Virus record (IMG/VR): IMGVR_UViG_3300049792_000048
Span: 32,001 to 96,000 of that record
DNA: 64,000 nucleotides
From: a virus
Lineage: Duplodnaviria > Caudoviricetes
Strand: one strand, 5' to 3'
In this document: piece by piece, positions 489-63,756 of the stretch
Numbering within the stretch: position 1 is the first letter of the stretch
How the letters are laid out: every line of letters begins with the position of its first letter
Program-made: the position numbers and the translations under genes
Notes under the pieces: model-generated
Databases searched by the model: none
Seen by the model: the letters and a program-made list of their open reading frames with translations, nothing else
Told to the model about the DNA's origin: nothing

Positions 489-821
489 ATGATCAGGAAG
501 CTCGCTCTCGAACTCGCAGGGGACCTCACCGCTCGTGGTGGTGACAGCCCGCTCATCTCCGGTCCGAACGACCTCCGTCCCGCGGACCCGACCTCCTTCC
601 CGCTCAGCTTGAAGGCCGACACGCAGGGTCCGCTGACCGACCTCACCGTCGAGCGCCATCGCGAGACGATGCAGGGCGAGCTCGCCCGTACATTCGACAA
701 CTATATCCCGAGCGTCAACGACTTCCGCTCCTCCATCGGAGGTCTCATGCACGCGAAGATCGACGAGATCTCTGGCTCGACTGCGGCGTCGCAGGCGCTG
801 ACGCGTCACCGCTCGGCATGA
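489..821 (+). CDS. Hypothetical protein
   Basis: GAGGA RBS upstream; ATGA overlap with the sigma gene; begins MIRKLA. Confidence 0.7.
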   Translation: MIRKLALELAGDLTARGGDSPLISGPNDLRPADPTSFPLSLKADTQGPLTDLTVERHRETMQGELARTFDNYIPSVNDFRSSIGGLMHAKIDEISGSTAASQALTRHRSA

Positions 822-1606
822 CGACGAAGCGAAGCCCGTTCGACAAGTTCAACCGGGACGCGCGACCAATCACTGGAGGAGGGAGTAACGACCCTCACCG
901 CGCGCTCTGGAAGACTTGGCACGACAGCGGGAAGAAGCCGGAACACCTCGAACCTCTTCTCGATGCTCTCGAACCGACCATCCAGTCGTTCGCAAAGCGC
1001 AAGCTGAATGGCCTCGGAGGCTCGATCCCCTATTCAGCGTTGGAGCAGCAGCTCCGTATCGCTGCGAAGAAGGGGTTGGAGTCCTACGATCCAACGAGGG
1101 GGACGAAGGTCCGTACGCACATCATCACGAACTTCCAACGCATCACCGACTTCGTCGGAGGCAACCGGAACTTCGCGTATGTGCCGAAGCCTCGTGTGGA
1201 GAAGTTCCAGCGCTTCATGAACGCCAGGCACGAGTTCATGGAGCAGCATGGACACGAGCCCATGTTCAACGACATGAAGAAGCTGCTTCCCGATATTCCG
1301 GCCAACGACCTTCGGCCGATGATGTCGGAGTTTCGTACCGAGCACTTCATCGGAGGCAACCCGAACCCAGACGCCGAAGATGGAAGTCTCGGGCATGCTC
1401 CCAGCCAAGTGCGGAGCATCATTTCGCTCATGCCGGCGTTGCTGACGAGTGAGGAGCAGAAGGTCTTCGATCAGCTCTTCCCGACGGTGGGGGATCCCCC
1501 GAGCATCGCGCAGATCGCGAAGAAGACGGGGATGAACCAGAACCAGGTCTACAGGCTCCGTGGAGCCATCTACAAGAAGGTGAAGCCACATCTCGGTGGC
1601 GTCTGA
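818..1606 (+). CDS. Sigma70-family RNA polymerase sigma factor (compact, regions 2-4)
   Basis: Region 2-like YDPTRGTKVRTHI (cf. FDPxRGxKFSTYA); region 3-like HGHEP; C-terminal HTH PSIAQIAKKTGMNQNQVYRLRGAIYKKVK. Confidence 0.85.
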   Translation: MTTKRSPFDKFNRDARPITGGGSNDPHRALWKTWHDSGKKPEHLEPLLDALEPTIQSFAKRKLNGLGGSIPYSALEQQLRIAAKKGLESYDPTRGTKVRTHIITNFQRITDFVGGNRNFAYVPKPRVEKFQRFMNARHEFMEQHGHEPMFNDMKKLLPDIPANDLRPMMSEFRTEHFIGGNPNPDAEDGSLGHAPSQVRSIISLMPALLTSEEQKVFDQLFPTVGDPPSIAQIAKKTGMNQNQVYRLRGAIYKKVKPHLGGV

Positions 1607-2847: not shown

Positions 2848-4353
2848 GTGATGAAGAAGCTCTCGGAGATCATCACAGAGCTGAAGCCGCATCAGCAGCG
2901 GGTGGTCGACCGTATCCAAAAACAGCCAGGGCTGGTTGTCGCTCACGGTATGGGCTCGGGCAAGACCCTGACCTCGATCGCCGCCGCAGAGCGCCTTGGT
3001 GGCAACACGACCGCGGTCGTCCCGGCATCGCTTCAGAGCAACTACCAGAAGGAGCTCGACAAGCATCTCAAGGGGACGCCGAACTCCAGCTACGACATCC
3101 AGAGCCTCCAGCGACAGGCCCTCCAGGGCAGCATCGCGCCCACGGATAATCTGATTGTCGACGAGGCTCACCGGATTCGTGACCCCTCCTCGATGTCGAG
3201 GAAGGTGGTCCGTGGAGCCGAAGCGAAGAAGCGGATGCTGCTGACCGGTACCCCGCTCTACAATCGTCCCTACGACATCGCATCGCTGGTCAATGTCGCC
3301 GCCGGCGAGAACGTCCTTCCTCCAGCCCAAGCCGACTTCGAGAAGCGCTACATCGGAGAGCGGAAGGTCGATCCAGGCTGGATTGCGCGCACGTTCCGTG
3401 GCGTGAAGCCTGGCTCGGTGGCGGAGCTGAAGCGCAAGGACGAGCTCTCGAAGATCTTGGGGCAGTGGGTCGACTTCCACGAGAACACGACCGAGAACTT
3501 CCCGACACGTCACGATGAAGTCGTGAACACCCCGCTTGGGAAAGAGCAGCAGAACGTCTACAACGCGTTGATGGGCGAAGCCCCTTCATGGATCAAGTAC
3601 AAGGTCCAACATGGACTTCCTCCGAGCAAGCAAGAGTCGAAGGACCTCAACGCGTTCTCCAGTGGTGTTCGTCAGGTCTCCCTGAGTCCTGCTGGCTTCC
3701 AGGAAGGGGTTACGCCCGATCAAGCCGCGGCGATGAGTCCGAAGCTTCAGACGGCCTACCAGCGGCTCTCTGATCAGATCGAGAAGAACCCGCAGCATCG
3801 AGCACTCGTGTACTCGAACTTCCTGGAATCAGGTCTTCATCCGTACGAGACGATGCTCCAGCAGGGGAAGATCCCCTACGGCAAGTTCACGGGAGAGCTC
3901 TCGAAGAGTGAGCGCGACCAGATGGTCACCGACTACAACTCCGGCAAGCTGAGAGCTCTGATGCTGTCGAGCGCGGGAGGCGAAGGACTCGACTTGAAGG
4001 GGACTCGACAGATTCAGGTTCTGGAGCCCCACTTCAACAAGGAGAAGCTGGAGCAGGTGATCGCTCGTGGTATCCGTTATGGCAGCCACGCCCATCTCCC
4101 GGAAGACCAACGAAACGTCGCCGTCGAGCACTACGTCTCGCAGCTCCCGAAGCCAGGTATCATTCGCAGGGCGTTCGGCGCGAAGCGTCCTGGCAGTATC
4201 GATGAGTACCTGCGCACGCTCTCCTCGCAAAAGGATGAGCTCAACCAGCAGGTGCGAGACATCCTGAAGACGACGACCGAGCAGCACTCTAAGACTTCGG
4301 GTCTCATGGATGTGGTGGTGTCGTACAGCGACTTGATGACGACTGTGTGTTAG
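2848..4353 (+). CDS. SNF2/SF2-type helicase/ATPase
   Basis: HGMGSGKT, IVDEAH, LLTGTP, SAGGEGLDL, QVIARGIRYGSH motifs. Confidence 0.9.
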   Translation: MMKKLSEIITELKPHQQRVVDRIQKQPGLVVAHGMGSGKTLTSIAAAERLGGNTTAVVPASLQSNYQKELDKHLKGTPNSSYDIQSLQRQALQGSIAPTDNLIVDEAHRIRDPSSMSRKVVRGAEAKKRMLLTGTPLYNRPYDIASLVNVAAGENVLPPAQADFEKRYIGERKVDPGWIARTFRGVKPGSVAELKRKDELSKILGQWVDFHENTTENFPTRHDEVVNTPLGKEQQNVYNALMGEAPSWIKYKVQHGLPPSKQESKDLNAFSSGVRQVSLSPAGFQEGVTPDQAAAMSPKLQTAYQRLSDQIEKNPQHRALVYSNFLESGLHPYETMLQQGKIPYGKFTGELSKSERDQMVTDYNSGKLRALMLSSAGGEGLDLKGTRQIQVLEPHFNKEKLEQVIARGIRYGSHAHLPEDQRNVAVEHYVSQLPKPGIIRRAFGAKRPGSIDEYLRTLSSQKDELNQQVRDILKTTTEQHSKTSGLMDVVVSYSDLMTTVC

Positions 4354-31517: not shown

Positions 31518-32527
31518 GATGTTCTCTTTTCTCTGTTCTCTGATTTCCACTGCACGTAGTACGAGGCACTGCTTATCGAGGACTGAATCTCTGCTTCTTG
31601 AAGTTGATCTGCTTGTTGTCTTAGGTCTGGGTACTTAGCGACTTTTACGATGTTCTTGCTTACGAGTAGTTTCCCTGCGGCGTGCGTTCCTTTGTGTCCT
31701 GCTTCGTTGTTGTCGAGGAAGAGCGTGACTTCACTCGCAGTGCGGGCGAGGAGCTCTGCCTGGAGTTTGGTTAGGTGTGCTCCGATGAGAGCGACGACGT
31801 TGTGGTAGCCCATCTGCCAGATCCACATCGCGGCCTTGAAGCCCTCGCACACGATGATGGGAGAGCGGTCCCGAAAGCAGATCGGGAAGATGAGGTGGGC
31901 ATGCCAGAGGAGCGCACCCTTGATAGACGCCATCGAGTACTTCGGACTGACACCGAACCGGGCCAGGTCCTTCTCGGAGTAAATCTTGTACCGAGGTTCG
32001 AGCCCCTGGACCATCGTGCGGCCGGATACACCAACGAGCTCACCGTACAGGTTGCGAAGGGGGAAGGTCACACGAGCCATCGTGTGGTCGACCCCGACCT
32101 CGAAGTGCCGGAGCGTACGCTCCTTGAAGCCGGCTCGGTAGAGGGTTTCAGGCCTCAGACGCCACCCATCCAGAATCTCGTCGTCCAGGACGAACTTGCC
32201 TCGAAACGGGTTCGCTCCTGTGAAGATGGAGTGGGCGCTCTTGCCATCTCCGTACTCGCTGTAGTCGTAGCTGATCTTCTCCACCACCGACTTCGCGATG
32301 TCGGTGGGAGCTCCTACCTGACGTAGGAACTTGCTGATGTGCCCGGCGACGCTGCAACCGTGGCAGAAGAATACCGGCTTCACCCGGGACACAGAGCACG
32401 ACGGAGTACGCTCAAGACCGCCGCCGTGGAACGGGCAGCGGACCATCACGTAGTTGGTCGAGAGGACTGCACCTGCGAGAGACTGCGGAGCTAGCTCCCG
32501 CAGGACGTCTTCAATGCTCTGCGGCAT
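31514..32527 (-). CDS. dnaG: DnaG-type primase
   Basis: CPFH...ERTPS...FFCHGC (CHC2 finger); VGVSGR; VCEG; LFLDNNEAG (TOPRIM). Confidence 0.92.
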   Translation of the reverse strand: MPQSIEDVLRELAPQSLAGAVLSTNYVMVRCPFHGGGLERTPSCSVSRVKPVFFCHGCSVAGHISKFLRQVGAPTDIAKSVVEKISYDYSEYGDGKSAHSIFTGANPFRGKFVLDDEILDGWRLRPETLYRAGFKERTLRHFEVGVDHTMARVTFPLRNLYGELVGVSGRTMVQGLEPRYKIYSEKDLARFGVSPKYSMASIKGALLWHAHLIFPICFRDRSPIIVCEGFKAAMWIWQMGYHNVVALIGAHLTKLQAELLARTASEVTLFLDNNEAGHKGTHAAGKLLVSKNIVKVAKYPDLRQQADQLQEAEIQSSISSASYYVQWKSENREKRTS

Positions 32528-45899: not shown

Positions 45900-47349
45900 A
45901 AAGAGTCCCCTCGTTCTTGTAGAACTCGGGCATCTTCTGGAATGCCTCTTCGATGAGGCTGATGCTGTGGTGGGATCGCAGCACGCTGGTGATCGCTGGT
46001 CGTGGTACCGGATCTGTTGGCTGTGAGGCCCACAACATCAACGCGAGGAAGATGACCGCGGGCTCTCCGAGTTCGATGATGTGGTGTCTCCAGTCCCGGG
46101 CCCGGATGTAGTCCTCGATCAAGGGCTTCATCTGTGCATCCCAGGTCTCACGAGGCGTCTTGCTGGAAGAGTCGAAGGCTTCCACGTTCCCTTCTGGAGT
46201 GTCGGGATGCCATGCCTTCGCACGCCCGGCATGCGGCGACATCGAGTTCATCACCATCGGCAAGTCATTCTTGCCAGTGAGGGTGAAGAACAACGCACCC
46301 AGCTCTTCGCTGTGATGCTCGATGAGCGACCGAACGACCTCGTAGTTCACCGAATAGAGAGTCAGCAATGCAGTCTTCGGGGTGAGGGCACGGAAGTCCT
46401 CGATCGTCAGAGCCCGCCCGATGAGTGTGTAGTAGTCGTCGTTCCTGGCTGACCCCACGATTGCCTTGAGTCCCGAAGCCATCGTTTCGACCGAAGCATC
46501 GTGACGAACGATGCGAAGCCCCTCTCGGACTCCGGTGAGCCTGCGGAAGTAGTCCTCCGCATTACCTGCCGGCAAGTTTCGTATGTACCTCGCTGCACCG
46601 CTCGCTCGGTCGTGCTTCGTTGGGCCATACAACATCTTGTATGAAGCACTGCCCACCATGTCCGTCCACTGTCCGAACTGTGTGTTGAGACGGCAGAGGT
46701 GTCCGTACCACAGCGGAACTTCAACTTGGTGAAGCATCTTCTTCAAGTACTCCTTGGGGAACCAGGCAGCACTTCCCAGCGAGTCGAGCGGGATCGGCCG
46801 CTGCTCGTGATCCAGTAGAAGCTCGATCGGATACGGCTGAAGCCCGAAGCGGGTTGGAGCGTAGGGGTTGCTGGTCACAGCGCTGACGAACTGCTGTGCG
46901 CTGTGGTTCTTGTAGAACTTTCGCAAGAACTCGAACTGTAGGATCTCCTCTGCCTCTAGCTCTTCGATCACGGTGCCATGCTCCATGAGTCCCGTGGCTA
47001 TCTGGATCGGCGTGTGCAGGGAGGTGTAGCCGCGAACGGCTTCGATCTGCATCACCTCCTTCAACGGGATGCCAAGGCGCAGAGTCCTGTCGATCGTGTA
47101 TGTCGGGAAGTTATACGGGGCTGGCCTGTTCGGTACAGCAGGCAACCCCATCTGAGCTGGCAGCTCGCTGAGCTTCTCGCCGTACGCAGCCAGCAGCCAC
47201 CTCCACATCTTCGTGCTGAAGCCGTAGAGGGTGTTGCTGAAGCTTGTGCCCGTGAAGAGTCCTCGACCGTGCTCGTTGAGAAGGGCGTGGGCGAGGGACT
47301 CGTAGACTGTCATCACCAGGGATGCTCCATGACGTATGTCGTCCCCCAT
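45898..47349 (-). CDS. Hypothetical protein in the MoxR operon
   Basis: 483-aa ORF; start uncertain (47349 or about 47313). Confidence 0.7.
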   Translation of the reverse strand: MGDDIRHGASLVMTVYESLAHALLNEHGRGLFTGTSFSNTLYGFSTKMWRWLLAAYGEKLSELPAQMGLPAVPNRPAPYNFPTYTIDRTLRLGIPLKEVMQIEAVRGYTSLHTPIQIATGLMEHGTVIEELEAEEILQFEFLRKFYKNHSAQQFVSAVTSNPYAPTRFGLQPYPIELLLDHEQRPIPLDSLGSAAWFPKEYLKKMLHQVEVPLWYGHLCRLNTQFGQWTDMVGSASYKMLYGPTKHDRASGAARYIRNLPAGNAEDYFRRLTGVREGLRIVRHDASVETMASGLKAIVGSARNDDYYTLIGRALTIEDFRALTPKTALLTLYSVNYEVVRSLIEHHSEELGALFFTLTGKNDLPMVMNSMSPHAGRAKAWHPDTPEGNVEAFDSSSKTPRETWDAQMKPLIEDYIRARDWRHHIIELGEPAVIFLALMLWASQPTDPVPRPAITSVLRSHHSISLIEEAFQKMPEFYKNEGTL

Positions 47350-48554
47350 GGAGGCTTCAGGCCTCCGGTTGGGATCACGAACGTCGTCTTCTTGACCGGC
47401 TTATCCGGCAACTTGATGTGGCCATCAGTCAGGATGCAGATCGCGCTCGGCTTTTCCTTTGCTGCGATCTCGAACAACTCGATGGCTGATGTGTACGAGT
47501 GTTCTCCGCTCTTAAACTTGACGTGGTCGAAGATGTGGCGAGGCTGGGTGGTCGTGTACTGCTCGCGAACCACAGCATCGAAGGTGACAACGATTACCTT
47601 CGTGGCTCGATGCGCTGCCGCCTGTACGTTCGTGATGAAGATGCGGATGAGGGCATCGGTGACGCTTGTGCTGACGTCAATGCCGAGGAGGAGGATGCGC
47701 TCCTTCACAACTCGCGTCTGCGGCAAGATGATCGGGTAGTACTTCATCTTGGGTGGCGCATACGTAGCTTCATCCCACCCGAGGTCTGAGCTGAGCCCGC
47801 CCCGAATGAGGGAGCCCCACGGAAGAGTCGGTCGCAAAACCTTCTCCATCCGCTCTCGTACGACGTTGGGGAGCGCCTTGTGCATCGAACTCGTCTCCGA
47901 CAACGCCTTGGCGTGCGCGATATCTTGACGAAAGGCTTCTTGGAAGTCCTTGTTGGCTTGTTGCGGTCCGGTGTCTACGCCGTCCTCTACCTTTCCCGGG
48001 GCGGCGGGGGGTTCTCGCATGTCAGTACCATTGCCGACCTCGTCGTCTTGTCCCTTCTCCGGGAGGTACTTGCTGGTCGATCCAGCCTTGGCCTCTTCCT
48101 CCTTCTTCAAGATGACGTAGATCTCCTCGACCGTCTTTCCATCAGCCCACGACTGGTATTGAATGAAACGTGGAGGAACCGGCCAGCGGATGAGCTGGGA
48201 CCTCGAATCGAGGGTACCGAGCAGTTCTCCGCACTGCCCGTTGACGAAGATGTCGGCCGCGATGTTCCACAGCTTCGGGTCGCGGGTCTCTCGACGCCCA
48301 TGGTGGTTGAAGTAGATGTGGAGCAGCTCATGAAGTAGCCCAAACATCACGATCTCGAAGTCTTCGGCGATCACGAACTTCCTGCCGCAGAAAATCCCGA
48401 CACCATCAGTCTCCATCGTATTGCAGCTGTCGGCGTGCACCTTCACGGAGCTGCCGAACAGCAGATACCCGAAAAAAGGAAACCGGATGACTAGTGACGT
48501 AACCGCCTTCGTCATCCGTTTGTTGTACGTGGGATCTGCGTCGCTGAAGATCAC
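47313..48554 (-). CDS. DUF2201-type metallopeptidase plus VWA domain protein
   Basis: TMETDG, LHELLH, WNIAADIFVN; MIDAS-like IDVSTS, FDAVV, LTDG. Confidence 0.88.
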   Translation of the reverse strand: MIFSDADPTYNKRMTKAVTSLVIRFPFFGYLLFGSSVKVHADSCNTMETDGVGIFCGRKFVIAEDFEIVMFGLLHELLHIYFNHHGRRETRDPKLWNIAADIFVNGQCGELLGTLDSRSQLIRWPVPPRFIQYQSWADGKTVEEIYVILKKEEEAKAGSTSKYLPEKGQDDEVGNGTDMREPPAAPGKVEDGVDTGPQQANKDFQEAFRQDIAHAKALSETSSMHKALPNVVRERMEKVLRPTLPWGSLIRGGLSSDLGWDEATYAPPKMKYYPIILPQTRVVKERILLLGIDVSTSVTDALIRIFITNVQAAAHRATKVIVVTFDAVVREQYTTTQPRHIFDHVKFKSGEHSYTSAIELFEIAAKEKPSAICILTDGHIKLPDKPVKKTTFVIPTGGLKPPWGTTYVMEHPW

Positions 48555-49675
48555 GACGAAGAATCCTTGATGATGGTGCCCATGATCTTGCCCGAGGACT
48601 TCGGATAGAAGTTCTTGAACTCGCGCTTCACAGTCTCGCGAAGCTGAAGAAGGAAGGCGACACGAAGTTCGGGAGACAAGCTCTCGATGAAGAGGTCCAG
48701 CCCCTTGTGCTTCGACGACATCTTCTTGTTGAGGCGATCCGTGACCGCGAAGACTCCCGCGAACTCCGCCATTTTCTGCACGACCTCCACGGGTACCTTC
48801 GGGTCGGTGCTCTTGATGGGCTCCTTGAAGGTTCCGTGTTCGAGGATGTGATCGACATCAACCTTCGAGAGGATGCTGTACCAAGCCCAGAAGTCATTTG
48901 CTGCCCCCTGGCCGATTTTGCGCGTCAGGGTACGAAGCCACAGCTTTGGGTCTGTGAACTCCTGCATGTGCAGCGATGCCTCCCGATAGCCACGTGGTGT
49001 CGGGAAGCGGATGACGTTCTCCTCGTGTTTGTGTAGGAGCTCGGGCTTGCTGTTGAGGAACCCGAGGATGACGGGCACGATGCGCGAGGGCTTCCCGTCC
49101 TCCACGTTGTTCGCCCATTCGACGAAGTCGTTGAAGTCAGCGTCCACTTCGATGGCTGTGACACGGGTCTTGAGGGACTCCGACATCGCGTTGGCGTGGA
49201 TGTCGTCGGTGGTGCGGTTGCCGGCACACATCATCAAGGACTTCGGGTGCAGAGCGAAGTCCTTGAACCGGCGATGCACGAAGAGGTGCAGCAGCGAGTT
49301 CGTGACGATTGGAGTGGCTTTGTCGATGTCGTCGAAGAGCAGCATCGTCGGGCGATGGCAGGCGTCGAACGCCGCACGATTCAACGCCCACAGGACTCGG
49401 AAGTCTTTCTTGGAGAGGTCCGAGGTCTCGACCGGAATGACCCATGGGATGCCCGCAGTGTCGGTCGGATCGGAGGCCTCACCCGTGGGGATGGCCTCGA
49501 AGACGAGAGCGTCCTCGATGACCTTCTCGCCCATCTCGATTGCGAGCTCGGCGGCCATCTCGGTTTTCCCGATGCCCACACCTCCGAGCAGACAGGGGAT
49601 GCTGAGGTATCGGTGCTTGTACTGGACGGTCAGCTCCTGAAGAGCTTCCTGTCGAGCTTCTGAGAACTTCGGCAT
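48551..49675 (-). CDS. MoxR-like AAA+ ATPase
   Basis: GGVGIGKT, DTAGIP, LLFDDIDKA, CAGN, FPTPR. Confidence 0.88.
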   Translation of the reverse strand: MPKFSEARQEALQELTVQYKHRYLSIPCLLGGVGIGKTEMAAELAIEMGEKVIEDALVFEAIPTGEASDPTDTAGIPWVIPVETSDLSKKDFRVLWALNRAAFDACHRPTMLLFDDIDKATPIVTNSLLHLFVHRRFKDFALHPKSLMMCAGNRTTDDIHANAMSESLKTRVTAIEVDADFNDFVEWANNVEDGKPSRIVPVILGFLNSKPELLHKHEENVIRFPTPRGYREASLHMQEFTDPKLWLRTLTRKIGQGAANDFWAWYSILSKVDVDHILEHGTFKEPIKSTDPKVPVEVVQKMAEFAGVFAVTDRLNKKMSSKHKGLDLFIESLSPELRVAFLLQLRETVKREFKNFYPKSSGKIMGTIIKDSSS

Positions 49676-50415: not shown

Positions 50416-50445
50416 TTGACCCACCGTGATGCGTGCGCGTAGACT
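50416..50445 (+). promoter_or_regulatory. Sigma70-like promoter TTGACC-N18-TAGACT, leaderless, for the RNAP gene
   Basis: -10 ends 6 nt before GTG 50452; same architecture as 39506-39535. Confidence 0.65.
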
Positions 50446-50451
50446 TCGACG

Positions 50452-53400
50452 GTGCTGAACACCGATCCGAACCGGCAGTACGAGGACCTGAAGCATCGGT
50501 TCCTCGCGGAAATCCAGGCCACGTTCCCGGTCTCGGACCCGAAAACGGGGATCGAAGTCCGGGTGAAGAACTTGGAGGTGTCGGACTCCACGCTCGGGAC
50601 AGACGACATCAAGGGCCAGATGCAGGCCCGGCTCACCGGACGTTCATACACGGCACCTGTCATCGCTGATGTCGAAGTCGTTGATCGTGCCGGCAAGCCG
50701 TTGGTCGGTCGTCGGATGAAGATCGCGGACATCCCGAAGCTGACGCGGCACTACACCTTCATCCACGGCGGGCAAGAGAAGTCGGTCACGAACCAGTGGC
50801 GTCTTCGTCCTGGCGCCTACGTGAAGGCGACCGAGAAGGCTGGCGAGTTCGAGGCACAGTTCCAGCTTGCGAAGGGGCGCCCCTTCGATGTGCAGATGGA
50901 ACCGGGCAGCGGCTACCTCTTCGTGAAGACTGGAGCTCGGAAGATCCCGCTCTACTCAGTCCTCAAGGCCACCGGCGTCACCGATGACGAGATGAAGAAG
51001 GCCTGGGGCGACAAGAACTTCGATGCGAACTTGAAAAAGGCCCGCTACGCACAGGACCTCAACTCGTTCTACACAGCGATGAAGGATGCGAACGTTCCGA
51101 CGGGTACCGACCTTCCGGCAGCGATCGTGAAGTACTTCAGCGAGACGAAAATGGACCCGGCCGTTACGAAGACGACGCTGGGAAAGGGCTTCGATCAGGT
51201 CTCGGGAGAAGCTCTCCTTCGAGCCAGTGGCAAGCTCATCGACGTCAGCGCGGAACGGGTTCGTCCTGATCCCATCGACTCGCTGGAGTTCAAGGAACTG
51301 TGGACTCCGGCCGATCACTTCATCGAACGTCTGCGTGCCTCGAAGAATGACATCCACGGGCGAGTGCTGAAGTCCCTCGGCAAGAAGTCGACACAGGAAG
51401 CGTTGTCGACTGGCTCGACGTCGATCCTCCGTGACATCGTCATGCCCGATTTGATCCAGAAGCCGATCAATCACGTCTTCGGCATCACGGGTCTGACCTC
51501 GACCCCCAAGCAGACGAACCCCGTGTCGATGTTGGCGGACCGTAGCCAGACAACGATCATGGGTCCTGGAGGCATCAAATCGGAGCACCAGGTCACGCTG
51601 TCGAATACAAGCGTCGATCCCTCGCAGCTCGGCTTCGTCGATCCTGTCTTCACTCCCGAAGGTTCTCCGGGAACGACCACCCACCTCACGTCCGGAATCG
51701 TGGTGCGTGACCGCAAGCCGTACACGAAGCTGTACAACTTGAAGACCGGGAAGATCGAGGAGCTCACGCCGGCGGAAGCGGCAAAGGCGATTGTAGTCCT
51801 CCCCGATCAGATCACGTGGCATGGGGGTGTGCCTCGTGCGATCAACGAGAAGGTTCGTGTCTCGAATCAGCATGGCGATATCGAGGAGCGCCCGCTGAAG
51901 GATGCTCACTACGCCCTCATCTCTTCGACACAGGTGTTCTCCACGGAGACCAACCTCGTCCCGTTCATGCAGAACGATGCTGCCGGCCGCACGACCATGT
52001 CGGCGCGACACATGGCACAGGCTCTTTCGCTGACGGGCCGGGAAGCTCCGCTTGTTCAGGTGCAGGCTGCTCCTGGCGCATCGTTTGAGAAGCGGATCGG
52101 TGAGACCTTCCTCTCGCACAAGGCTCCAGCAGCCGGCTTCGTGACGAAGGTATTGGCGGACGAGATCGTGGTGAAGGATCCGGCAGGGCGTGAGCACTCC
52201 GTCCACATCTACGATCACTACCCGCTCAACGAAAAGAAGACGATGTTGCACTCGACGCCCCTCGTGAAGGTGGGTGATCGGGTGCACACCGGGCAGGTCT
52301 TGGCCGATCATTCCTTCACGAAGAACGGGACACTTGCTCTCGGAACAAACGTCCGCGTCGCGTACCTGGCGAACGGTGCGAACCACGAGGATGGCATCGC
52401 CCTCTCCGAGTCGGCGGCGAAGAAGATGGGGACCGAGCATCTCCTGAAGCCGTCATTCTACGTCACCGACGACCATGTTATCGACAAGGGCCGCTTCGTC
52501 GCTCACAAGGGCACGGCCTTCCAACCCACGCAGTACAACCACATCGGCGATGATGGTGTCGTGAAGGAGGGGGCCACGGTCCATCCTGGTGACCCGCTCG
52601 TTCTGGCTCTTCGTGAAGAGAAGAACCCCGACACGATCGACGCGAAGATGCTCGACCGGCTCACCAAGAAGGGCCGCCTCGACTACACGAACGCGGCTCT
52701 GACGTGGGACCACGAACATACCGGAGAGGTTGTTCGTGTGGTCCGCTCCGGCAAGAACATCACTGTTCACGTCAAGACGAAGGAGCCGATGATCGTCGGG
52801 TCCAAGGTCTCGACGCGTCACAGTGCGAAGGGCATCGTCACGCAGATCCTGCCCGACAACGAGATGCCGTACTACATGAAGAATGGCAAGCACGAGCACG
52901 TCGAGATGCTGATCAACCCGGTCTCCGTGCCGGGACGCATGAATCCGGGTCAGATCTTGGAGACTGCCGCAGGCAAGATCGCCGAGAAGACTGGGCAGCC
53001 CTACATCGTCAAGAACTTCGACGGACAGACCGACTACCTGAAAAAGATCCAGAACGAGCTGAAGCATCACGGCCTCAAGGAGACCGAGCTCCTCGTCGAC
53101 CCCAAGACCGATCGCAAGCTCGGCGAGGTGACAGTCGGTCCGCACTACGTGTTCCAGCTCGAACATCAGATCGACAAGAAGACGCACGTCCGACACGGCG
53201 GCGCCTACATCAAGTCGACTGGGATGCCGCACATCCAGTACGACACCAATCTCGTTCCTCGGGGTGGTGGTGAGAGCGGAGCTCAGAGCTTGGGCTCTCT
53301 CGGCATCTACGGCGCTCTTGCTGCTGGTCTCCGTCAGAACCTCGGTGAGATGCAGACCCTCAAGTCCGATCGTCCGCAGGCCGAAGCTCTGTGGGCTGCT

Positions 53401-56400
53401 CTCGCGAACGGCCGGATGATCCCGCCTCCGCAGGTCCCCTACGTCTACAGCAAGTTCGGAGCTCTGCTTCAGGCCACGGGCTTGAACCTGGAGAAGAAGG
53501 GCAGCCTGCTCAGCCTCGTTCCGCAGACCGATGCAGAGACGCTGAAGTGGGCCGGAGGCAAGAGCGGCAAGGTCACCGAGCCATCCCTCACCGTGGCAGC
53601 CAAGAACATGAAGCCGAAGAGCGGAGGCATCTTCGACCCGCACATCTTCGGCCCGGACAAGCAGCGTTGGGGCTACATCGAGCTCGCAGCGCCGATGCCG
53701 AACCCGATCTTCGCTGACTCGATTTCCTCGCTGCTGGGCATCCAGAAGCAGGACATCCAGAAGATTATCTCTGGTGAGATGAAGTTGAACGGCAAGATCG
53801 GGGGCGAGGCGATCCGCGAGGGTCTCGCCAAGATCAACGTCGATCAGAAGCTGAAGCACTACAAGGCGATGATCGACGATCCGAAGGTGAAGAGCAGCGA
53901 GCTCAACAACGCCATCTTCGCGTACAAGTCGCTGCGTGCGCTGAAGGAGCACGGCAAGACGCCTTCCGAGGCGTACACGATGAAGTTGCTCCCGGTGCTT
54001 CCTCCGATCTACCGTCCCTTCCAGGAGAGTGCGGAGGGCACCGACCGCATCGATCCGCTGAACCAGCTTTACCGCCGACTCGGTATGGTGAACTCGTCGT
54101 TGGAGGCCTCGAAGAAGGAAGGCATCCCCGACCGCCGTCTCCTTCAGGCGCAGGGTGATCTCTACCAGGAGATGCAGAACCTTTTTGGCACGACCCCGAA
54201 GGGGAAGAAGGCGCTCGACATCGACTTCCAGGGCAACCCTGTGCGAGGTCGTTTCCTGCCCGGCATCTTGCACACCATCGCGGGTGACTCGCCGAAGGAT
54301 GGCTTCTTCCAGGACAAGGTCATCGGCAAGAAGCAGGACTACACAGCACGAGCCACGATCGTCGCTGACCCAGGTCTCGGTGCCGATGAGATTGGCGTGC
54401 CGAAGAAGATCGCCTTCGAGCTCTTCCGGCCTGTGGTGGGGCATCGCCTCGTGCAGATGGGCTACAACCCGATCCAGGCGCAGCAGGAGATCTCGAAGCG
54501 CTCCGCGGTGGCCGAGGCTGCTCTCCAGCGAGAGATCGAAGAGCGTCCGGTCTTGATGAAGCGTGACCCCGTGCTCCACCAGTACGGCATCATCGGTCAG
54601 AAGGTGAAGCTGACGGATTCGCGAGCCATCAAGGTGAGCCCGCTCGTTCTCCCTCCGATCGGTGGAGACATCGATGGCGATACGGTGGCGCTGTTGCTCC
54701 CCATCCAACACGCCGCAGTCCAGGAAGCGTACAAGCTCCTCCCGTCGAACCGGTCCATCTCGGCAAGTACGGGAGAGGTCCTGTTCACTCCGACGAACGA
54801 GGCGATGCTGGCCCTCTACCGCATGTCCCTCAAGAAGCGGGAGACGAACCAGACGTTCGCATCGTCGAAGGAGGCAGAGGCCGCCTTCGTCAACAACAAG
54901 GTGAACCTCGACGACGTCATCACAGTCGGTGGGCACCGCACCACGCTCGGTCGTGTGCGTATCTCCCACGTCGTACCCGAGCAGTACAAGACGAAGGTCC
55001 TCACTGACATCGACACCCCCATCTCGAAGAAGTTCGTCACGGACATGCTGCGTCAGACGGCGCAGCACTCGCCGGCGACCTTCGAGCCGTTCACGCGCAA
55101 CCTCACCCAGCTCGGCTTCAAGATGGCGTTCGAGAGCGGGCACACTGTGCGGCTGTCGGACTTGGAGCCGATGCGGGTCGAGCGCGCAAAGATCATCGCA
55201 GCTGCGAAGGGACGTGCCGAAGGCAAGCCCGACGCAGAGCGGACGCAGATCTGGATCGACGCCACCAAGAAGCTGCACGAGACGTACGACGAGCACTTCA
55301 AGAAGCACCCCACCAACATCTCGGACATGCGGGCCTCGGGCATCAAGGCCAAGAAGGAGCAGTTCCAGGGCTTGGTGATTGCTCCGATGCTTGTGGAGAA
55401 CCACCTCGGGCATGCCTCGAAGGTGCCGATCACTCGCTCGTTCTCAGAAGGCATCGACGTCGGCGGCTACTTCCTCCAGGCAGCAGGAGCTCGGAAGGGC
55501 ACCATTCAGAAGGTCGACGCTGTCCGTGATCCCGGCGTGCTGACGAAGGAGCTCATCCAGTCCAACATCGACTCGCCCATCACGGCGATGGACTGCGGAA
55601 CCCACTCGGGCATCAGCCTCGGCGTCAACGACCGCGACCTCGTCGACCGCTACCTCGCTTCTCCCGTCACAGCCGGTGGCAAGACGATCCCTGCTGGCAC
55701 CGTCATCACCCCCGGGCTTCAGCAGACCTTCTCGAAGTCGGGTGTCACGAACCTGTTCGTGCGGTCTCCGCTGAAGTGCCGCATGCCGCACGGTATTTGT
55801 TCGACCTGCATGGGCAAGCACCCCTCCGGAGTCAACTACGACTTGGGTGACAACGTCGGCATCATGGCGGCTCAGGCCATCGGTGAGCGTGCTGCACAGC
55901 TCATGCTGAAGCAGACGCACAACCAGGGCATCGTCCCGACGCAGCGTGGTGCCGTCGACGAGTTCAGCACAGTCGAGCGGGTGTTCGGGGTGGCGAAGCG
56001 CTCGCCAGTTGATGCGATCATCGCTCCGCGTGCAGGCCTCATCACCCGTGTCGAGGCTCAGCCGCAGGGTGGCCACAAGATTCGCTTCGCGGAGAGCAAG
56101 GTCGATCTCTACTCTCGGCAGCCGCTTCTTCCGCACGTGAAGGCCGGCTACAGGTTCCAGCGCGGTGAGCAGCTCTCAGAGGGCGACCCGAACCTCAACA
56201 TGCTGCTCAAGACCCGTGGTCTCGAAGCGACACAGGACCACATGGTCGATCGCATCGGGAAGATCTACGAGAAGGAGGACGTCCTTCGTCGTCACGTCGA
56301 GCTTACGGTCCGCAATGCAACCAGCACGGTTGAGGTGTCGGACCCGGGCGACCACCCGACCATCCTCCGTGGGGACCATATGCAGTTCCCCATGATCGAG

Positions 56401-56649
56401 GAAATCAATCGAACCGTGCTCAAGGGCCGGAAGCCGATCGAAGTGCGCCCGGTACTGAAGGCCACGGAGACCACGACCGCGCTGAAGCAGCACGACTGGA
56501 TGGCACGACTTCAGTCGAATCGCCTCCAGGAGCACATCATGACGGCGGCGGCTCTCAACGAGAAGTCCGACGTCCACGGCTTGCACCCAATCCCGGGCTT
56601 GGCGATGGGCAGCGAGTTCGGTAAAGGTCGTGGTGTAGCCAAGTACTGA
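50452..56649 (+). CDS. rpoBC: Two-barrel DNA-directed RNA polymerase, beta-beta' fusion in one polypeptide
   Basis: Beta motifs TPEG, NHED, GSKVSTRHSAKG, NPVSVPGRMNPGQILE; beta' motifs PVLPP.YRP, GKKQDY, RDPVLH, GGDIDGD, GARKG, RSPLKC..C..C, QAIGE. Confidence 0.95.
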   Translation: MLNTDPNRQYEDLKHRFLAEIQATFPVSDPKTGIEVRVKNLEVSDSTLGTDDIKGQMQARLTGRSYTAPVIADVEVVDRAGKPLVGRRMKIADIPKLTRHYTFIHGGQEKSVTNQWRLRPGAYVKATEKAGEFEAQFQLAKGRPFDVQMEPGSGYLFVKTGARKIPLYSVLKATGVTDDEMKKAWGDKNFDANLKKARYAQDLNSFYTAMKDANVPTGTDLPAAIVKYFSETKMDPAVTKTTLGKGFDQVSGEALLRASGKLIDVSAERVRPDPIDSLEFKELWTPADHFIERLRASKNDIHGRVLKSLGKKSTQEALSTGSTSILRDIVMPDLIQKPINHVFGITGLTSTPKQTNPVSMLADRSQTTIMGPGGIKSEHQVTLSNTSVDPSQLGFVDPVFTPEGSPGTTTHLTSGIVVRDRKPYTKLYNLKTGKIEELTPAEAAKAIVVLPDQITWHGGVPRAINEKVRVSNQHGDIEERPLKDAHYALISSTQVFSTETNLVPFMQNDAAGRTTMSARHMAQALSLTGREAPLVQVQAAPGASFEKRIGETFLSHKAPAAGFVTKVLADEIVVKDPAGREHSVHIYDHYPLNEKKTMLHSTPLVKVGDRVHTGQVLADHSFTKNGTLALGTNVRVAYLANGANHEDGIALSESAAKKMGTEHLLKPSFYVTDDHVIDKGRFVAHKGTAFQPTQYNHIGDDGVVKEGATVHPGDPLVLALREEKNPDTIDAKMLDRLTKKGRLDYTNAALTWDHEHTGEVVRVVRSGKNITVHVKTKEPMIVGSKVSTRHSAKGIVTQILPDNEMPYYMKNGKHEHVEMLINPVSVPGRMNPGQILETAAGKIAEKTGQPYIVKNFDGQTDYLKKIQNELKHHGLKETELLVDPKTDRKLGEVTVGPHYVFQLEHQIDKKTHVRHGGAYIKSTGMPHIQYDTNLVPRGGGESGAQSLGSLGIYGALAAGLRQNLGEMQTLKSDRPQAEALWAALANGRMIPPPQVPYVYSKFGALLQATGLNLEKKGSLLSLVPQTDAETLKWAGGKSGKVTEPSLTVAAKNMKPKSGGIFDPHIFGPDKQRWGYIELAAPMPNPIFADSISSLLGIQKQDIQKIISGEMKLNGKIGGEAIREGLAKINVDQKLKHYKAMIDDPKVKSSELNNAIFAYKSLRALKEHGKTPSEAYTMKLLPVLPPIYRPFQESAEGTDRIDPLNQLYRRLGMVNSSLEASKKEGIPDRRLLQAQGDLYQEMQNLFGTTPKGKKALDIDFQGNPVRGRFLPGILHTIAGDSPKDGFFQDKVIGKKQDYTARATIVADPGLGADEIGVPKKIAFELFRPVVGHRLVQMGYNPIQAQQEISKRSAVAEAALQREIEERPVLMKRDPVLHQYGIIGQKVKLTDSRAIKVSPLVLPPIGGDIDGDTVALLLPIQHAAVQEAYKLLPSNRSISASTGEVLFTPTNEAMLALYRMSLKKRETNQTFASSKEAEAAFVNNKVNLDDVITVGGHRTTLGRVRISHVVPEQYKTKVLTDIDTPISKKFVTDMLRQTAQHSPATFEPFTRNLTQLGFKMAFESGHTVRLSDLEPMRVERAKIIAAAKGRAEGKPDAERTQIWIDATKKLHETYDEHFKKHPTNISDMRASGIKAKKEQFQGLVIAPMLVENHLGHASKVPITRSFSEGIDVGGYFLQAAGARKGTIQKVDAVRDPGVLTKELIQSNIDSPITAMDCGTHSGISLGVNDRDLVDRYLASPVTAGGKTIPAGTVITPGLQQTFSKSGVTNLFVRSPLKCRMPHGICSTCMGKHPSGVNYDLGDNVGIMAAQAIGERAAQLMLKQTHNQGIVPTQRGAVDEFSTVERVFGVAKRSPVDAIIAPRAGLITRVEAQPQGGHKIRFAESKVDLYSRQPLLPHVKAGYRFQRGEQLSEGDPNLNMLLKTRGLEATQDHMVDRIGKIYEKEDVLRRHVELTVRNATSTVEVSDPGDHPTILRGDHMQFPMIEEINRTVLKGRKPIEVRPVLKATETTTALKQHDWMARLQSNRLQEHIMTAAALNEKSDVHGLHPIPGLAMGSEFGKGRGVAKY

Positions 56650-57215
56650 TGGCGAATCACCGTCGAGATGTTACTGGCCAGGAACTTGGCCACCTCACGG
56701 CGTTACACCCGACGGGGAAGACCACGCGCTACGGGGTGGTGTGGCTGATTCAGTGTCGATGCGGCAAGAAGATCAAGATGTCGTTGTCGGAGTTCGTACG
56801 GGGACACAACAAACACTACCCGCGAACCTGCGGGTGCGTGCGCAAGAGGATGCGTAGCTCGAAATACAAGGGCATCGGAGACCTCTCACACACACGTTGG
56901 AGGAACATCACGAAGACTGCTGACCGACGTGGGTATGAGATCGGCATCACGATATCTGGTGCCTGGAAGCTTTTCGAGAAGCAAAAAGGTCTATGTGCTC
57001 TGACCGGTCTTCCGATTCAGCTTGCACCGACCACGATGAAGGCCGGAACCTCTACTGCATCGCTAGATCGCATCGACAGCAAGAAGGGCTATATCAAGGG
57101 CAACGTGCAGTGGGTTCACCGCGACATCAACTTCATGAAGCAGGCATTCCCGCAAGATGTCTTCGTGGAGTGGTGCGTCCGTGTCGCTCGACATAGCCAT
57201 AGGGGACGTCGATGA
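56649..57215 (+). CDS. HNH-type free-standing (homing-type) endonuclease
   Basis: WLIQCRCG...TCGC; CALTG...SLDRIDSKKGYIKGNVQWV...NFMK. Confidence 0.8.
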   Translation: MANHRRDVTGQELGHLTALHPTGKTTRYGVVWLIQCRCGKKIKMSLSEFVRGHNKHYPRTCGCVRKRMRSSKYKGIGDLSHTRWRNITKTADRRGYEIGITISGAWKLFEKQKGLCALTGLPIQLAPTTMKAGTSTASLDRIDSKKGYIKGNVQWVHRDINFMKQAFPQDVFVEWCVRVARHSHRGRR

Positions 57216-61911: not shown

Positions 61912-63756
61912 ATGGTTCCAGAGATGGCGGTCAGGGTTGGCTTCGACGAAGATGAAGATCGTGACATGGCCGTTGAGTACGGTGTACGTGTTAGCGACCT
62001 GGAGTACAAGCTGGCCCAGGCGAAACAGGCCAAGACCGGGAGGATCCAGCTCCTGACATCCGAGTGGGTCACCGCCTTCATCCGCATCAAGGATGGCGAC
62101 ACCGGCGCCGCAGTCCCTCTCGTGTTTGACGAGCGCAAGTACCTCAAGCGCATCTACGACACTCCCGCCCGCAAGGTGCTGCTCTTCACGAGCCGTCAGA
62201 CCGAGAAGTCGACGACGATCGGCAACCGCATCTTCGGCCGTGCCGGCATGCGCCCCGGGCACACGTCGCTGTTCGTGTCTCCCTCGGCGATGCAGACGGC
62301 CGTCTTCTCGAAGACACGCCTGAACGAGATCATCGACATCAGCCCGCTCATCAAGGCGCAGACCCACGAGGCGCTCACGAACAACCTGTTCGAGAAGCAC
62401 TTCGCGAATGGCTCGAAGATCTACCTCCGGTACGCCTTCCTCACTGCCGACCGTATCCGTGGTCTGTCCGTGAACGATCTCTTCCTCGACGAGATTCAGG
62501 ACTTGGTCTCGACGACCATGCCCGTCATTGAAGAGACGACGTCCCACCACCAGGACACCTTGTTCGTGTACTCGGGAACTCCCAAGAGCATGGACAACAA
62601 CATCCACCACTACTGGGCGGACAACTCGACCGCCAGTGAGTGGTGCATTCCGTGTGAGCACCATGGTCTGCCGAACATGCCGGCGACCTGGCACTGGAAC
62701 ATCCTCAGTGAGAAGAACCTGGGCAAGGATGGCCCCATCTGTGACCGCTGCGGGCACGCCATCAATCCCGAGCACCCGTACGCTCGCTGGGTGGAGATGC
62801 AGAAGCTCGACAACGAGCGCATCACCTTCGAGGGCTACCGCGTCTGTCGTCTGATGGTGCCCTGGTTCTGGAAGTCGCCCAAGAAGTGGAAGGAGATCCT
62901 CGCCGCCCGAGAGCGCTACCCCACGGCGCAGTTCATGAACGAGGTCCTTGCGATCTCCTACGACTCCGCCTCGAAGCCGATCTCCAAGCTGGAGCTCATC
63001 CAGACCTGCGAGCCGAAGATCGAGAACAATCTGGAGACGGCGTACAAAATCGCCCAGAACAACACCACGTTCTTCGGCATCGATTGGGGCAGTGGCGAGC
63101 GAGCCTTCACCGTGCTCACGATGGGTGCCTACTGTCGGGACGACGCCGCTTTCCAGATCTTCTTCATGATGCGTTTCGTCGGCCCGCTGACGGACCCGAT
63201 CGCACAGATGGATGAGATAGAGTCCCTCGTCACACGCTTCCGTCCAAAGTATGTAGGCACCGACTTCGGCTTCGGCTTCTACCAGAACAAGCGTCTGCTC
63301 TCGAAGTTCGGCATGCAGCGGATCTTCCCGTTCGAGTATGCGGCCCGCTTGAACATGAAGCTGAAGTATGTCCCGAAGCTTCACCGCACCGTTGCGTTCC
63401 GTACCCCACTCATGTCGGACATGTTCGTGGCGCTGAAGCGTCGTAAGGTGCGTCTACCGAAGTGGTCCACGATCGAGCGGCCGTACGGTGACGACTTCTT
63501 GAACATCCATGCCGAGGACTCCGACAACCTTCGGATGATCAAGTACGACAAGCCGAAGGGGAAGACTGACGACTCCTTTCACGCCTCCCTGTACTGTTTG
63601 CTCGCGTCCATGTTGGAGCACAAGCGTCCCGACATCATCGCTCCCTTCAAGGAAGAGGAAGAGTCGCGGCTCGCTGGCTATGTCAGTGACGATGCTTACG
63701 ACGGGGAGATCCCCTACTCGTACGGCGACCCAGGCGACGGCTTCAACAACACCTAG
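61912..63756 (+). CDS. terL: Terminase large subunit
   Basis: SRQTEKST (Walker A), RIRG, LFLDEIQD, SGTPK, GIDWG, DDSFHA; start uncertain (61912, 61924 or 61966). Confidence 0.9.
   Translation: MVPEMAVRVGFDEDEDRDMAVEYGVRVSDLEYKLAQAKQAKTGRIQLLTSEWVTAFIRIKDGDTGAAVPLVFDERKYLKRIYDTPARKVLLFTSRQTEKSTTIGNRIFGRAGMRPGHTSLFVSPSAMQTAVFSKTRLNEIIDISPLIKAQTHEALTNNLFEKHFANGSKIYLRYAFLTADRIRGLSVNDLFLDEIQDLVSTTMPVIEETTSHHQDTLFVYSGTPKSMDNNIHHYWADNSTASEWCIPCEHHGLPNMPATWHWNILSEKNLGKDGPICDRCGHAINPEHPYARWVEMQKLDNERITFEGYRVCRLMVPWFWKSPKKWKEILAARERYPTAQFMNEVLAISYDSASKPISKLELIQTCEPKIENNLETAYKIAQNNTTFFGIDWGSGERAFTVLTMGAYCRDDAAFQIFFMMRFVGPLTDPIAQMDEIESLVTRFRPKYVGTDFGFGFYQNKRLLSKFGMQRIFPFEYAARLNMKLKYVPKLHRTVAFRTPLMSDMFVALKRRKVRLPKWSTIERPYGDDFLNIHAEDSDNLRMIKYDKPKGKTDDSFHASLYCLLASMLEHKRPDIIAPFKEEEESRLAGYVSDDAYDGEIPYSYGDPGDGFNNT

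Follow-up and report, generated by a model that had tools for sequence, protein, structure and literature searches.

The stretch of DNA considered here (the window) comprises 64,000 nucleotides, positions 32,001 to 96,000 of the IMG/VR virus record IMGVR_UViG_3300049792_000048 (Duplodnaviria; Caudoviricetes), and contains a gene for a fused beta-beta' RNA polymerase, located at 50452-56649 on the plus strand. The open reading frame (ORF), which begins with a GTG codon and has no internal stops, encodes a protein of 2065 amino acids (aa), named P0001. The source genome is that of an uncultured phage; the complete record is 195,774 bp long, carries 127-bp terminal repeats and has a completeness estimate of 100%. 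The elements of the gene are listed below, with residue numbers of P0001 unless another protein is named.

50452-56649, plus strand: whole ORF, fused beta-beta' RNA polymerase (P0001), identified by Pfam and PDB matches and by more than 100 full-length homologues of 2040-2150 aa
50452-53493, plus strand: beta module, residues 1-1014, with Rpb2_3 and Rpb2_6, a family profile that aligns to Salmonella RpoB 52-1338, and an AlphaFold2 (AF2) model
51499-51555, plus strand: equivalent of the rifampicin pocket, residues 350-368, with key residues replaced in the profile alignment
52387-52392, plus strand: active-site acidic pair of beta, E646-D647, aligned to Escherichia coli E813-D814 and invariant in the family
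52636-52677, plus strand: equivalent of the flap-tip helix, residues ~729-742; E. coli beta 900 and 905 correspond to 732 and 737
52804-52830, plus strand: catalytic lysines of beta, K785 and K793, aligned to E. coli K1065 and K1073 and invariant in the family
53491-53520, plus strand: beta-to-beta' junction, a direct head-to-tail join at residues ~1014-1023; profile position 1010 corresponds to RpoB 1338 and 1023 to RpoC 27
53494-56646, plus strand: beta' module, residues 1015-2065, with Rpb1_1, _2, _3 and _5, a phmmer match at E 2e-84 and an AF2 model
53623-53685, plus strand: site of the deleted N-terminal zinc-binding domain of beta', residues 1058-1078, from alignments to cyanobacterial gamma and E. 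coli beta'
54661-54681, plus strand: catalytic loop GGDIDGD, with D1406/D1408/D1410 equivalent to beta' D460/D462/D464; the Asp triad and G1409 are invariant
55486-55500, plus strand: start of the bridge helix, GARKG, residues 1679-1683; G778 corresponds to G1679, and G1679 and R1681 are invariant
55594-55809, plus strand: second zinc site, C1715 (55594-55596) and C1776, C1783 and C1786 (55777-55809), equivalent to E. coli C814/C888/C895/C898 and at least 90% conserved
55897-55920, plus strand: trigger-loop segment ending in H1823, equivalent to H936 and at least 90% conserved

Pfam analysis of P0001 revealed, in this order, Rpb2_3 (353-414) and Rpb2_6 (559-921; PF00562, E 3e-49), followed by the Rpb1 domains Rpb1_1 (1173-1244), Rpb1_2 (1353-1430), Rpb1_3 (1436-1571) and Rpb1_5 (1667-1830). 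Two PHROG families, of about 1200 positions each, match the protein, one its beta half and the other its beta' half; the best sequence matches in the PDB, as found by phmmer, are bacterial beta' (E 2e-84) and bacterial beta (E 6e-63) chains. An earlier examination of the window, made from the letters without database searches (the sequence-only reading), had described a single ORF carrying beta motifs followed by beta' motifs; this is borne out by the Pfam order and the PDB matches, and the motif coordinates that it gave, for GGDIDGD (1404-1410), for the junction (about 1014-1023) and for the zinc gap (1058-1078), are all right. P0001 is a genuine single-chain, bacterial-type beta-beta' RNA polymerase in a phage. 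In the profile alignment the connector between the two modules takes up about 12 residues, compared with about 30 terminal residues in Salmonella, and the complete genome holds one beta/beta'-type polymerase locus only.

The same architecture is found in a large family. A search of 5.8 billion proteins returned 391 homologues of P0001, among them more than 100 clusters of 2040-2150 aa, which are 37-96% identical to it and come from independent assemblies, with contigs as long as about 200 kb. Both modules are found in one chain in 235 of the 268 relatives retrieved, at identities that go down to about 30%; an exhaustive profile-free search with the beta' half as query yielded mostly chains of about 2050 aa, in which the match begins near residue 1000, and the best 150 representatives after clustering at 50% identity, all with E < 1e-134, are mostly fused. 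No near-identical DNA to this genome was found in the phage collection. The same fusion recurs on phage contigs in hundreds of independent assemblies, at identities between 96% and about 30%; it is thus no artefact of assembly, and the worry expressed on this point by the sequence-only reading is answered.

Many relatives are longer (2400-4700 aa). In these, e.g., those at L013:8001-16535 and L011:8001-15350, insertions break up the polymerase at two places, the catalytic Asp loop and the trigger-loop His, so that the beta' match falls into 2-4 pieces, and these insertions carry intein and LAGLIDADG/homing-endonuclease Pfam domains; because of these domains, the insertions are recognized as inteins, which occupy the two sites of strongest conservation in the enzyme.

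Catalytic residues, predicted fold and lost domains

Residues of P0001 were mapped by aligning the phage-family profile to Salmonella RpoB and RpoC, with E. coli numbering, and conservation was scored in a 35-member family alignment. The catalytic elements of beta and beta' are all present and conserved across the large family; among the 35 members, conservation of the catalytic residues is complete or reaches at least 90%, a pattern such as would be expected of an active enzyme. In addition to the acidic pair and the lysines listed above, beta H1237, R678 and R1106 correspond to H905, R513 and R829 of P0001. The retention of the second zinc site, of the GARKG bridge helix and of the trigger-loop His, already noticed in the sequence-only reading, agrees with the alignment and the conservation scores, and the AF2 model has a long helix at residues 1670-1705, in the bridge-helix region.

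The residue map likewise supports the earlier identification of GGDIDGD at 54661-54681 as the catalytic loop with its three Asp kept. The universal NADFDGD sequence is not found in P0001, where N458 is replaced by G1404 and A459 by G1405. More distant fused relatives keep NADFDGD, and GGD(I/V/L)DGD occurs only in the subclade that holds this phage; the GGDIDGD form is thus, judged from the alignment, derived within one subclade of the family.

AF2 models were built from 39-row alignments for residues 1000-2065 and 1-1100. The first has a mean predicted local distance difference test score (pLDDT) of 86.0 and a predicted template modelling score (pTM) of 0.75, and Foldseek matches it to solved bacterial beta' with template modelling (TM) scores of 0.78-0.81 (E 1e-63); for the second, pLDDT is 85.7 and pTM 0.75, with matches to solved bacterial beta at TM 0.70-0.75 (E 6e-72). 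In both cases the matches run over the full length, and both halves are predicted to fold like bacterial beta and beta'. The low-confidence parts of the beta model are the flap tip and the C-terminal segment 907-959, which is taken to pack against beta' in bacterial enzymes. A helix is modeled at 729-737 with low pLDDT, as expected of a mobile flap tip; in bacteria the flap-tip helix is the docking site of sigma region 4.

In the equivalent of the rifampicin pocket, Q513 is replaced by S350, D516 by K353, H526 by D363, R529 by Q366 and S531 by T368. Substitutions of D516, H526 and S531 are classical causes of rifampicin resistance, and, since the residues of the binding pocket are replaced, P0001 is predicted to be insensitive to the antibiotic.

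The N-terminal zinc-binding domain of beta' is missing, as the sequence-only reading had claimed for the four-Cys domain. The alignment to cyanobacterial gamma and E. coli beta' skips from about residue 66 to about 100, no residue of P0001 aligns to beta' C70, C72, C85 and C88 in the profile alignment, and the domain (approximately beta' 66-100) is cut to roughly 3 residues. The segment at this gap contains no Cys in any of the 268 relatives, except for four that have longer segments; three of these segments, of 453-476 aa, are read as inteins. Like the fusion, the absence of this domain characterizes the family as a whole.

Other parts of the E. coli enzyme that are gone are beta 932-1049, beta 1122-1207, beta' 945-1139 and the last ~60 residues of beta', while beta 222-420 is shortened to about 67 residues. 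Beta 222-420, 932-1049 and 1122-1207 and beta' 945-1139 correspond to the E. coli lineage-specific inserts (SI1, SI2 and i11 of beta, SI3 of beta'), which many bacteria lack. The total of about 2700 aa that the sequence-only reading had assigned to bacterial beta plus beta' holds for E. coli and Salmonella (1342 + 1407 aa) and fails for other bacteria, whose solved chains are as short as 1161 aa for beta' and 1100 aa for beta; because these chains are far smaller than the E. coli ones, the shrinkage relative to the smallest bacterial enzymes is about 10%, not 25%. Accordingly, of the description of P0001 as a minimal or streamlined bacterial-like polymerase, "bacterial-like" stands and "minimal" does not, the absent parts being mostly lineage-specific inserts and the core being otherwise complete. 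The enzyme amounts to the conserved core of the bacterial one without the zinc-binding domain, its two modules being linked by some 12 residues, and is not radically reduced.

Phylogeny and closest known systems

Phylogenetic analysis was performed with FastTree on 1968 profile-anchored columns and 67 taxa, including seven bacteria that represent several phyla. Every phage sequence falls into a single clade, which excludes the bacteria, has support 1.0 and sits on a stem of 0.7 substitutions per site; this rules against a placement nested within a normal bacterial clade, a possibility that the sequence-only reading had raised. Over the same columns P0001 is 26-27% identical to the bacterial enzymes, whereas the bacteria share 55-58% among phyla. 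The tree, in which bacterial sampling is thin and the root is not placed, excludes a recent capture from a host. Within the phage clade, Rhizobium phage RHph_TM30 and Cobetia phage Carin-5 are sister to a group made up of Arash, D69 and the fused family (support 0.95); the position of Arash and D69, as sister to the fully fused group or inside it, has a support of 0.16, and the GGD subclade one of 1.0.

A scan of 185,579 species genomes detected the gene only on five large contigs (32-204 kb) of metagenome-assembled genomes, and no isolate or prophage with the gene was found in it. Three of the five contigs also carry the phage sigma gene. The labels of the five bins (contigs L009-L013) are Desulfatibacillum, Myxococcales, Anaerolineales, Deltaproteobacteria and Bacteroidales; these contigs are probably mis-binned phage genomes rather than evidence on the host.

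The closest cultured relatives are Salmonella phage Arash (OQ632216, PMC10585845) and the Vibrio phages D69, D181 and D148, with 29-31% full-length identity. Their proteins have the same beta-to-beta' junction as P0001 and have lost the zinc-binding domain; their genomes are of about 180-190 kb. Differently from P0001, which is continuous, their beta' is cut at a point corresponding to about residue 1490 of P0001, so that the products are a protein of about 1525 aa, containing beta and the N-terminal part of beta' (beta'-N), and one of about 607 aa with the C-terminal part (beta'-C). Other genes lie between the two, and in D181 and D148 a homing endonuclease is among them. The Arash proteins are annotated as beta and beta' in PMC10585845, where the fusion is not mentioned. 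Arash also encodes a sigma factor, Gp10, and a SNF2 helicase, Gp217, orthologous to the products of the window genes at 818-1606 and 2848-4353.

Fusion of the two large subunits is also found in some Bacteria. The fused polymerase of Helicobacter is an ordinary bacterial enzyme that has alpha, omega and the zinc-binding domain and far exceeds the phage protein in length. The fused RpoB-RpoC proteins of Helicobacter and Wolinella were reported by Zakharova et al. (1998 and 1999, cited in PMC9696931); in them, as in P0001, the C-terminus of beta is joined directly to the N-terminus of beta', and the head-to-tail join of P0001 is located where the subunit termini join in Helicobacter and related bacteria (PMC9696931). 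The identity of only 26-27% given above refers to the bacteria compared, among which the Helicobacter sequence is not included.

The mReC group (Weinheimer & Aylward 2020, PMC7481178) resembles P0001 in being phage-borne and deep-branching, with bacterial-like beta and beta'. In each of 47 mReC entries compared, beta (900-1560 aa) and beta' (900-1390 aa) are separate proteins (PMC7481178), and the group was filtered by the presence of an NADxDGD motif and of two proteins of at least 800 aa; since two separate proteins and NADxDGD were required, these filters would have excluded P0001, which falls outside the mReC definition as a single protein lacking Asn-Ala. Fusion is mentioned in PMC7481178 only for crAss-like phages. 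Carin-5 and RHph_TM30 are cultured examples of the mReC layout, sister to the clade of the fused family and Arash; RHph_TM30 has a separate beta' of 1127 aa, and in Carin-5 the sigma gene adjoins the two separate large-subunit genes. Both of these Carin-5 genes (L007:2758-8981) are annotated as beta; the 1083-aa product matches beta' and the 927-aa product beta, and the order is sigma, beta', beta.

Polymerases of the phiKZ/AR9 type (PMC7598289, PMC7824862) are also phage enzymes of the multisubunit type that work without alpha; one set is packaged in the virion, and an SF2 helicase correlates with the polymerase genes (PMC7598289, PMC7824862). They consist of 4-5 polypeptides, with two sets per genome and no sigma70-family factor, whereas in the phage studied here a single chain, a single locus and a sigma70-family gene are found, in agreement with the distinction from the split phiKZ-type enzymes drawn by the sequence-only reading. 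The polymerases of crAss-like phages, the P23-45 enzyme fused to the tape-measure protein (bioRxiv 10.1101/2022.12.01.518664) and the virion RNA polymerase of N4 are single long polypeptides delivered from the particle, which P0001 would resemble only if it is packaged. The crAss-like enzyme escapes the cellular beta/beta' profiles (PMC7481178), while P0001 strongly matches Rpb1/Rpb2 and solved bacterial chains; the N4 enzyme is of the T7 type, unlike P0001. A fused phage beta-beta' architecture is not described in the literature searched. Both the enzyme family and the type of fusion are known; the subunit composition and the phage context in which they occur here are undescribed in the papers searched.

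Possible partner proteins, expression signals and possible virion association

Further features of the window concern the possible partners of P0001 and its expression.

818-1606, plus strand: sigma70-family factor, 262 aa, probable initiation partner, from the family profile, co-occurrence, orthology to Arash Gp10 and complex prediction
2848-4353, plus strand: SNF2/SF2 helicase, possible accessory ATPase of the polymerase, from a PHROG helicase match (E 3e-46) and orthology to Arash Gp217
50416-50445, plus strand: promoter-like TTGACC-18 nucleotides-TAGACT, ending 6 nucleotides before the GTG, with hexamers and GTG conserved in relatives
54037-54171, plus strand: clamp helices, residues 1196-1240, predicted sigma docking site from the complex prediction, equivalent to E. 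coli beta' ~258-302
56649-57215, plus strand: ORF for a homing endonuclease of the HNH/endonuclease VII type, with a start that overlaps the stop codon of the polymerase gene (PHROG endonuclease, E 4e-23)
61912-63756: large terminase gene, about 5 kb downstream of the polymerase gene

No alpha or omega gene was found in the complete genome with the Pfam models PF01000, PF01193, PF03118 and PF01192, which were positive in 13-14 of 14 control genomes; the absence of these genes from the window, reported by the sequence-only reading, thus extends to the whole genome. A search for T7-type polymerases also gave no match in the genome, and the controls were likewise without a match.

The sigma ORF at 818-1606 has no significant Pfam match when searched alone. 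A profile of 19 homologues matches regions 2-4 of SigA/RpoD in the PDB over positions 84-255 (E 6e-10); Sigma70_r3 is detected in 13 of the 19 homologues and r4 in 8, and region 2 is weakly detected, with E 0.004 when the genome was searched and 0.099 when the protein was searched singly. Orthologues of the sigma gene share a phage contig with the fused polymerase in relatives that have a 33-37% identical polymerase. In a complex prediction of sigma with residues 1015-1450 of P0001, the interface score ipSAE was 0.78, and the best of 3 controls reached 0.01; the ipSAE mark used is attained by 58 of 80 solved complexes and by 2 of 110 mismatched pairs. At least 72% of contacts are common to the runs, partner pLDDT is 68 or higher, and the predicted interface, between the clamp helices 1196-1240 and sigma residues 68-85, would be the canonical contact of region 2 with the clamp helices. 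Since sigma-beta' is a textbook pair, this outcome denotes likeness to solved holoenzymes and is not a proof of binding. Compared with E. coli beta', the clamp helices carry the replacements R275V, R278S, L282S, E295A, Q300Y and A302E, at positions that we take to be sigma70-contact residues of the E. coli clamp helices; their replacement fits a private sigma.

The SNF2 helicase encoded at 2848-4353 is 42% identical to Arash Gp217 (E 7e-100), and its gene is about 2 kb away from that of sigma in a distant relative (G001:C1); it may be a RapA-like partner of the polymerase. The helicase is 42-47% identical to its counterparts in Arash and in the distant relative, and is more conserved than the polymerase; its gene stays near the sigma or polymerase genes.

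The polymerase gene has no Shine-Dalgarno sequence before its GTG. Directly upstream, both hexamers of the promoter-like element and the GTG are kept in relatives with 96% and 72% identical polymerases, where the spacer has diverged. In this genome, 9 genes have a TAnnnT sequence whose end lies exactly 6 nucleotides ahead of the start codon, and any other offset yields 0-4 genes; the 9 are the polymerase gene, the window genes starting at 1662, 4363, 8169 and 43914 and four more outside the window, and none has a Shine-Dalgarno sequence. The fixed 6-nucleotide offset at 9 genes without Shine-Dalgarno suggests a class of leaderless transcripts that would include that of the polymerase.

Plain 7-mer enrichment for promoters was weak. 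The sequence CTATCAG occurs 25 times, and in about 20 of these places a purine-rich leader comes next, containing a Shine-Dalgarno sequence, and a start codon lies 5-24 nucleotides further on; these sites lie at window positions 467, 24701 and 39501 and at about 17 others in the genome, and frequently have a T-rich tract or a hairpin ahead of them. The operon of the sigma gene has one copy in front of it, and CTATCAG may represent a second class of promoters or processing sites. In a relative with a 36% identical polymerase it is found 49 times against 21 expected, with flanks that look random and a context that is not conserved; CTATCAG as the cognate promoter of the phage sigma was considered and dropped in view of these random flanks.

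The endonuclease ORF that overlaps the polymerase stop codon is missing from the flanks in all nine relatives examined, among them the 96% identical one; it probably encodes a homing endonuclease that was inserted recently, and it is not part of the enzyme. The minus strand carries, divergently from the polymerase gene, a pair of genes for a MoxR-like AAA ATPase (48551-49675) and a DUF2201 metallopeptidase/VWA protein (47313-48554).

Proteomic data are available for Arash. In its particle preparations, Gp206 (beta plus beta'-N) gave the most spectra, 3516 compared with 1333 for the major capsid protein, with 100% coverage, and Gp216 (beta'-C), Gp10 (sigma) and Gp217 (helicase) were likewise detected (PMC10585845). 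Gp10 is the orthologue of the window sigma (E 1e-25); the Gp217 gene follows that of beta'-C, and the sigma and helicase orthologues of Arash lie among structural genes. By analogy with Arash, packaging of the polymerase in the virion is plausible. The structural context is argued mainly from Arash, because most genes neighbouring the P0001 gene have no Pfam or PHROG match.

Readings of the polymerase and their meaning

Taken together, P0001 is likely the catalytic core of a phage RNA polymerase of the bacterial two-barrel type, contained in one polypeptide, equipped with a sigma factor of its own and without encoded alpha or omega; we infer, in addition, that it may be packaged in the particle and, from the absence of the gene, that it may work without alpha, for which phage multisubunit polymerases lacking alpha provide a precedent (PMC7598289). 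Four proposals can be made about it, given here in decreasing order of confidence. Transcription would start with the sigma70-family protein of the phage (818-1606) docked on the clamp helices; the enzyme would be insensitive to rifampicin through the replaced residues of the binding pocket; the covalent link between beta and beta' would replace the alpha-dimer assembly platform, so that the core would be a single chain; finally, polymerase, sigma and SNF2 helicase would be packed into the particle and delivered with the DNA, as Arash suggests. Delivery with the DNA would make the phage genes readable without the host polymerase.

Several points weigh against this reading. The absence of an alpha gene is compatible with the use of host alpha, and the fused enzyme of Helicobacter still uses alpha; moreover, the many genes without a family match could include one for a divergent protein resembling alpha or omega. 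The claims for the fully fused members rest on sequence and models, and in P0001 the Asn N458 of the universal NADFDGD is a Gly. The upstream element looks like an ordinary sigma70 promoter, so that the host polymerase may make the enzyme after infection. As for packaging, mass spectrometry of Arash listed 116 proteins, including ribonucleotide reductases, and its authors allow for carry-over (PMC10585845); host alpha was undetectable there because the database contained phage proteins only (PMC10585845).

In its strongest form, the proposal would be that of a self-sufficient machine, made of the beta-beta' chain, sigma and the SNF2 ATPase, free of alpha and omega, packed and injected, for which the host RNA polymerase would be unneeded from the first minute; this form is put forward only tentatively. 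An equally tentative alternative is that the enzyme takes over transcription only inside the cell: it would be made by the host polymerase and would read later genes, like T7 RNA polymerase, without being packaged. The conserved TTGACC-18-TAGACT directly upstream fits this possibility, as do the presence of non-structural enzymes in the Arash preparation, where detection may be due to carry-over, and the single polymerase set, different from the phiKZ-type phages with separate virion and non-virion enzymes. Conversely, carry-over has to be set against the spectral counts and full coverage of Arash Gp206 and against the location of the Arash sigma and helicase orthologues among structural genes; in the phage studied here, eight further genes have the leaderless TAnnnT element of the polymerase gene, and about 5 kb separate the latter from the large terminase gene downstream.

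A hybrid enzyme appears rather unlikely. In this case the fused chain would be catalytic and would assemble on the host alpha dimer, perhaps with omega, the phage supplying beta-beta' and sigma. Since the modules are complete save for lineage-specific inserts and the zinc domain, the alpha-facing surfaces may persist; Helicobacter offers the example of a fused beta-beta' enzyme that still uses alpha, and the Arash proteomics was blind to host proteins. However, at 26-27% identity the interfaces for host alpha would need to be kept across a very diverse family, an injected enzyme would need to find host alpha after entry, and polymerases of the phiKZ/AR9 type work without alpha (PMC7598289).

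Recent capture of a host rpoB-rpoC pair, nested in a bacterial clade, is very improbable: the best solved-structure matches are bacterial, but the phage clade stands apart on its long, fully supported stem, the identity to the seven bacteria is less than half of that among them, and the only occurrences in the species genomes are the five metagenome-bin contigs, three of them with the phage sigma. An assembly artefact, pseudogene or inactive relic, in favour of which the Gly-Gly replacement of the universal Asn-Ala can be cited, has a negligible probability, given the recurrence of the fusion in hundreds of independent assemblies, the same beta/beta' junction in the cultured Arash and D69, the conservation of all catalytic residues and the high-confidence models of both halves.

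The assembly of beta with beta' in bacterial RNA polymerase is held to require an alpha dimer. A natural and widespread enzyme of the kind encoded by P0001 allows a test of whether tethering alone can replace the alpha assembly platform and, as a second test, of what the N-terminal zinc-binding domain is needed for; the cultured members of the family, Arash and Vibrio phage D69, make such experiments possible. A polymerase of about 230 kDa encoded by one gene, together with a 262-aa sigma, could become a compact orthogonal transcription system. The predicted insensitivity to rifampicin bears on the behaviour of the phage under antibiotic treatment, and the loss of the Asn of NADFDGD in the subclade of this phage might change sugar or substrate selection. 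If the self-sufficient machine were true, it would be the first alpha-free, sigma-dependent polymerase of the bacterial type.

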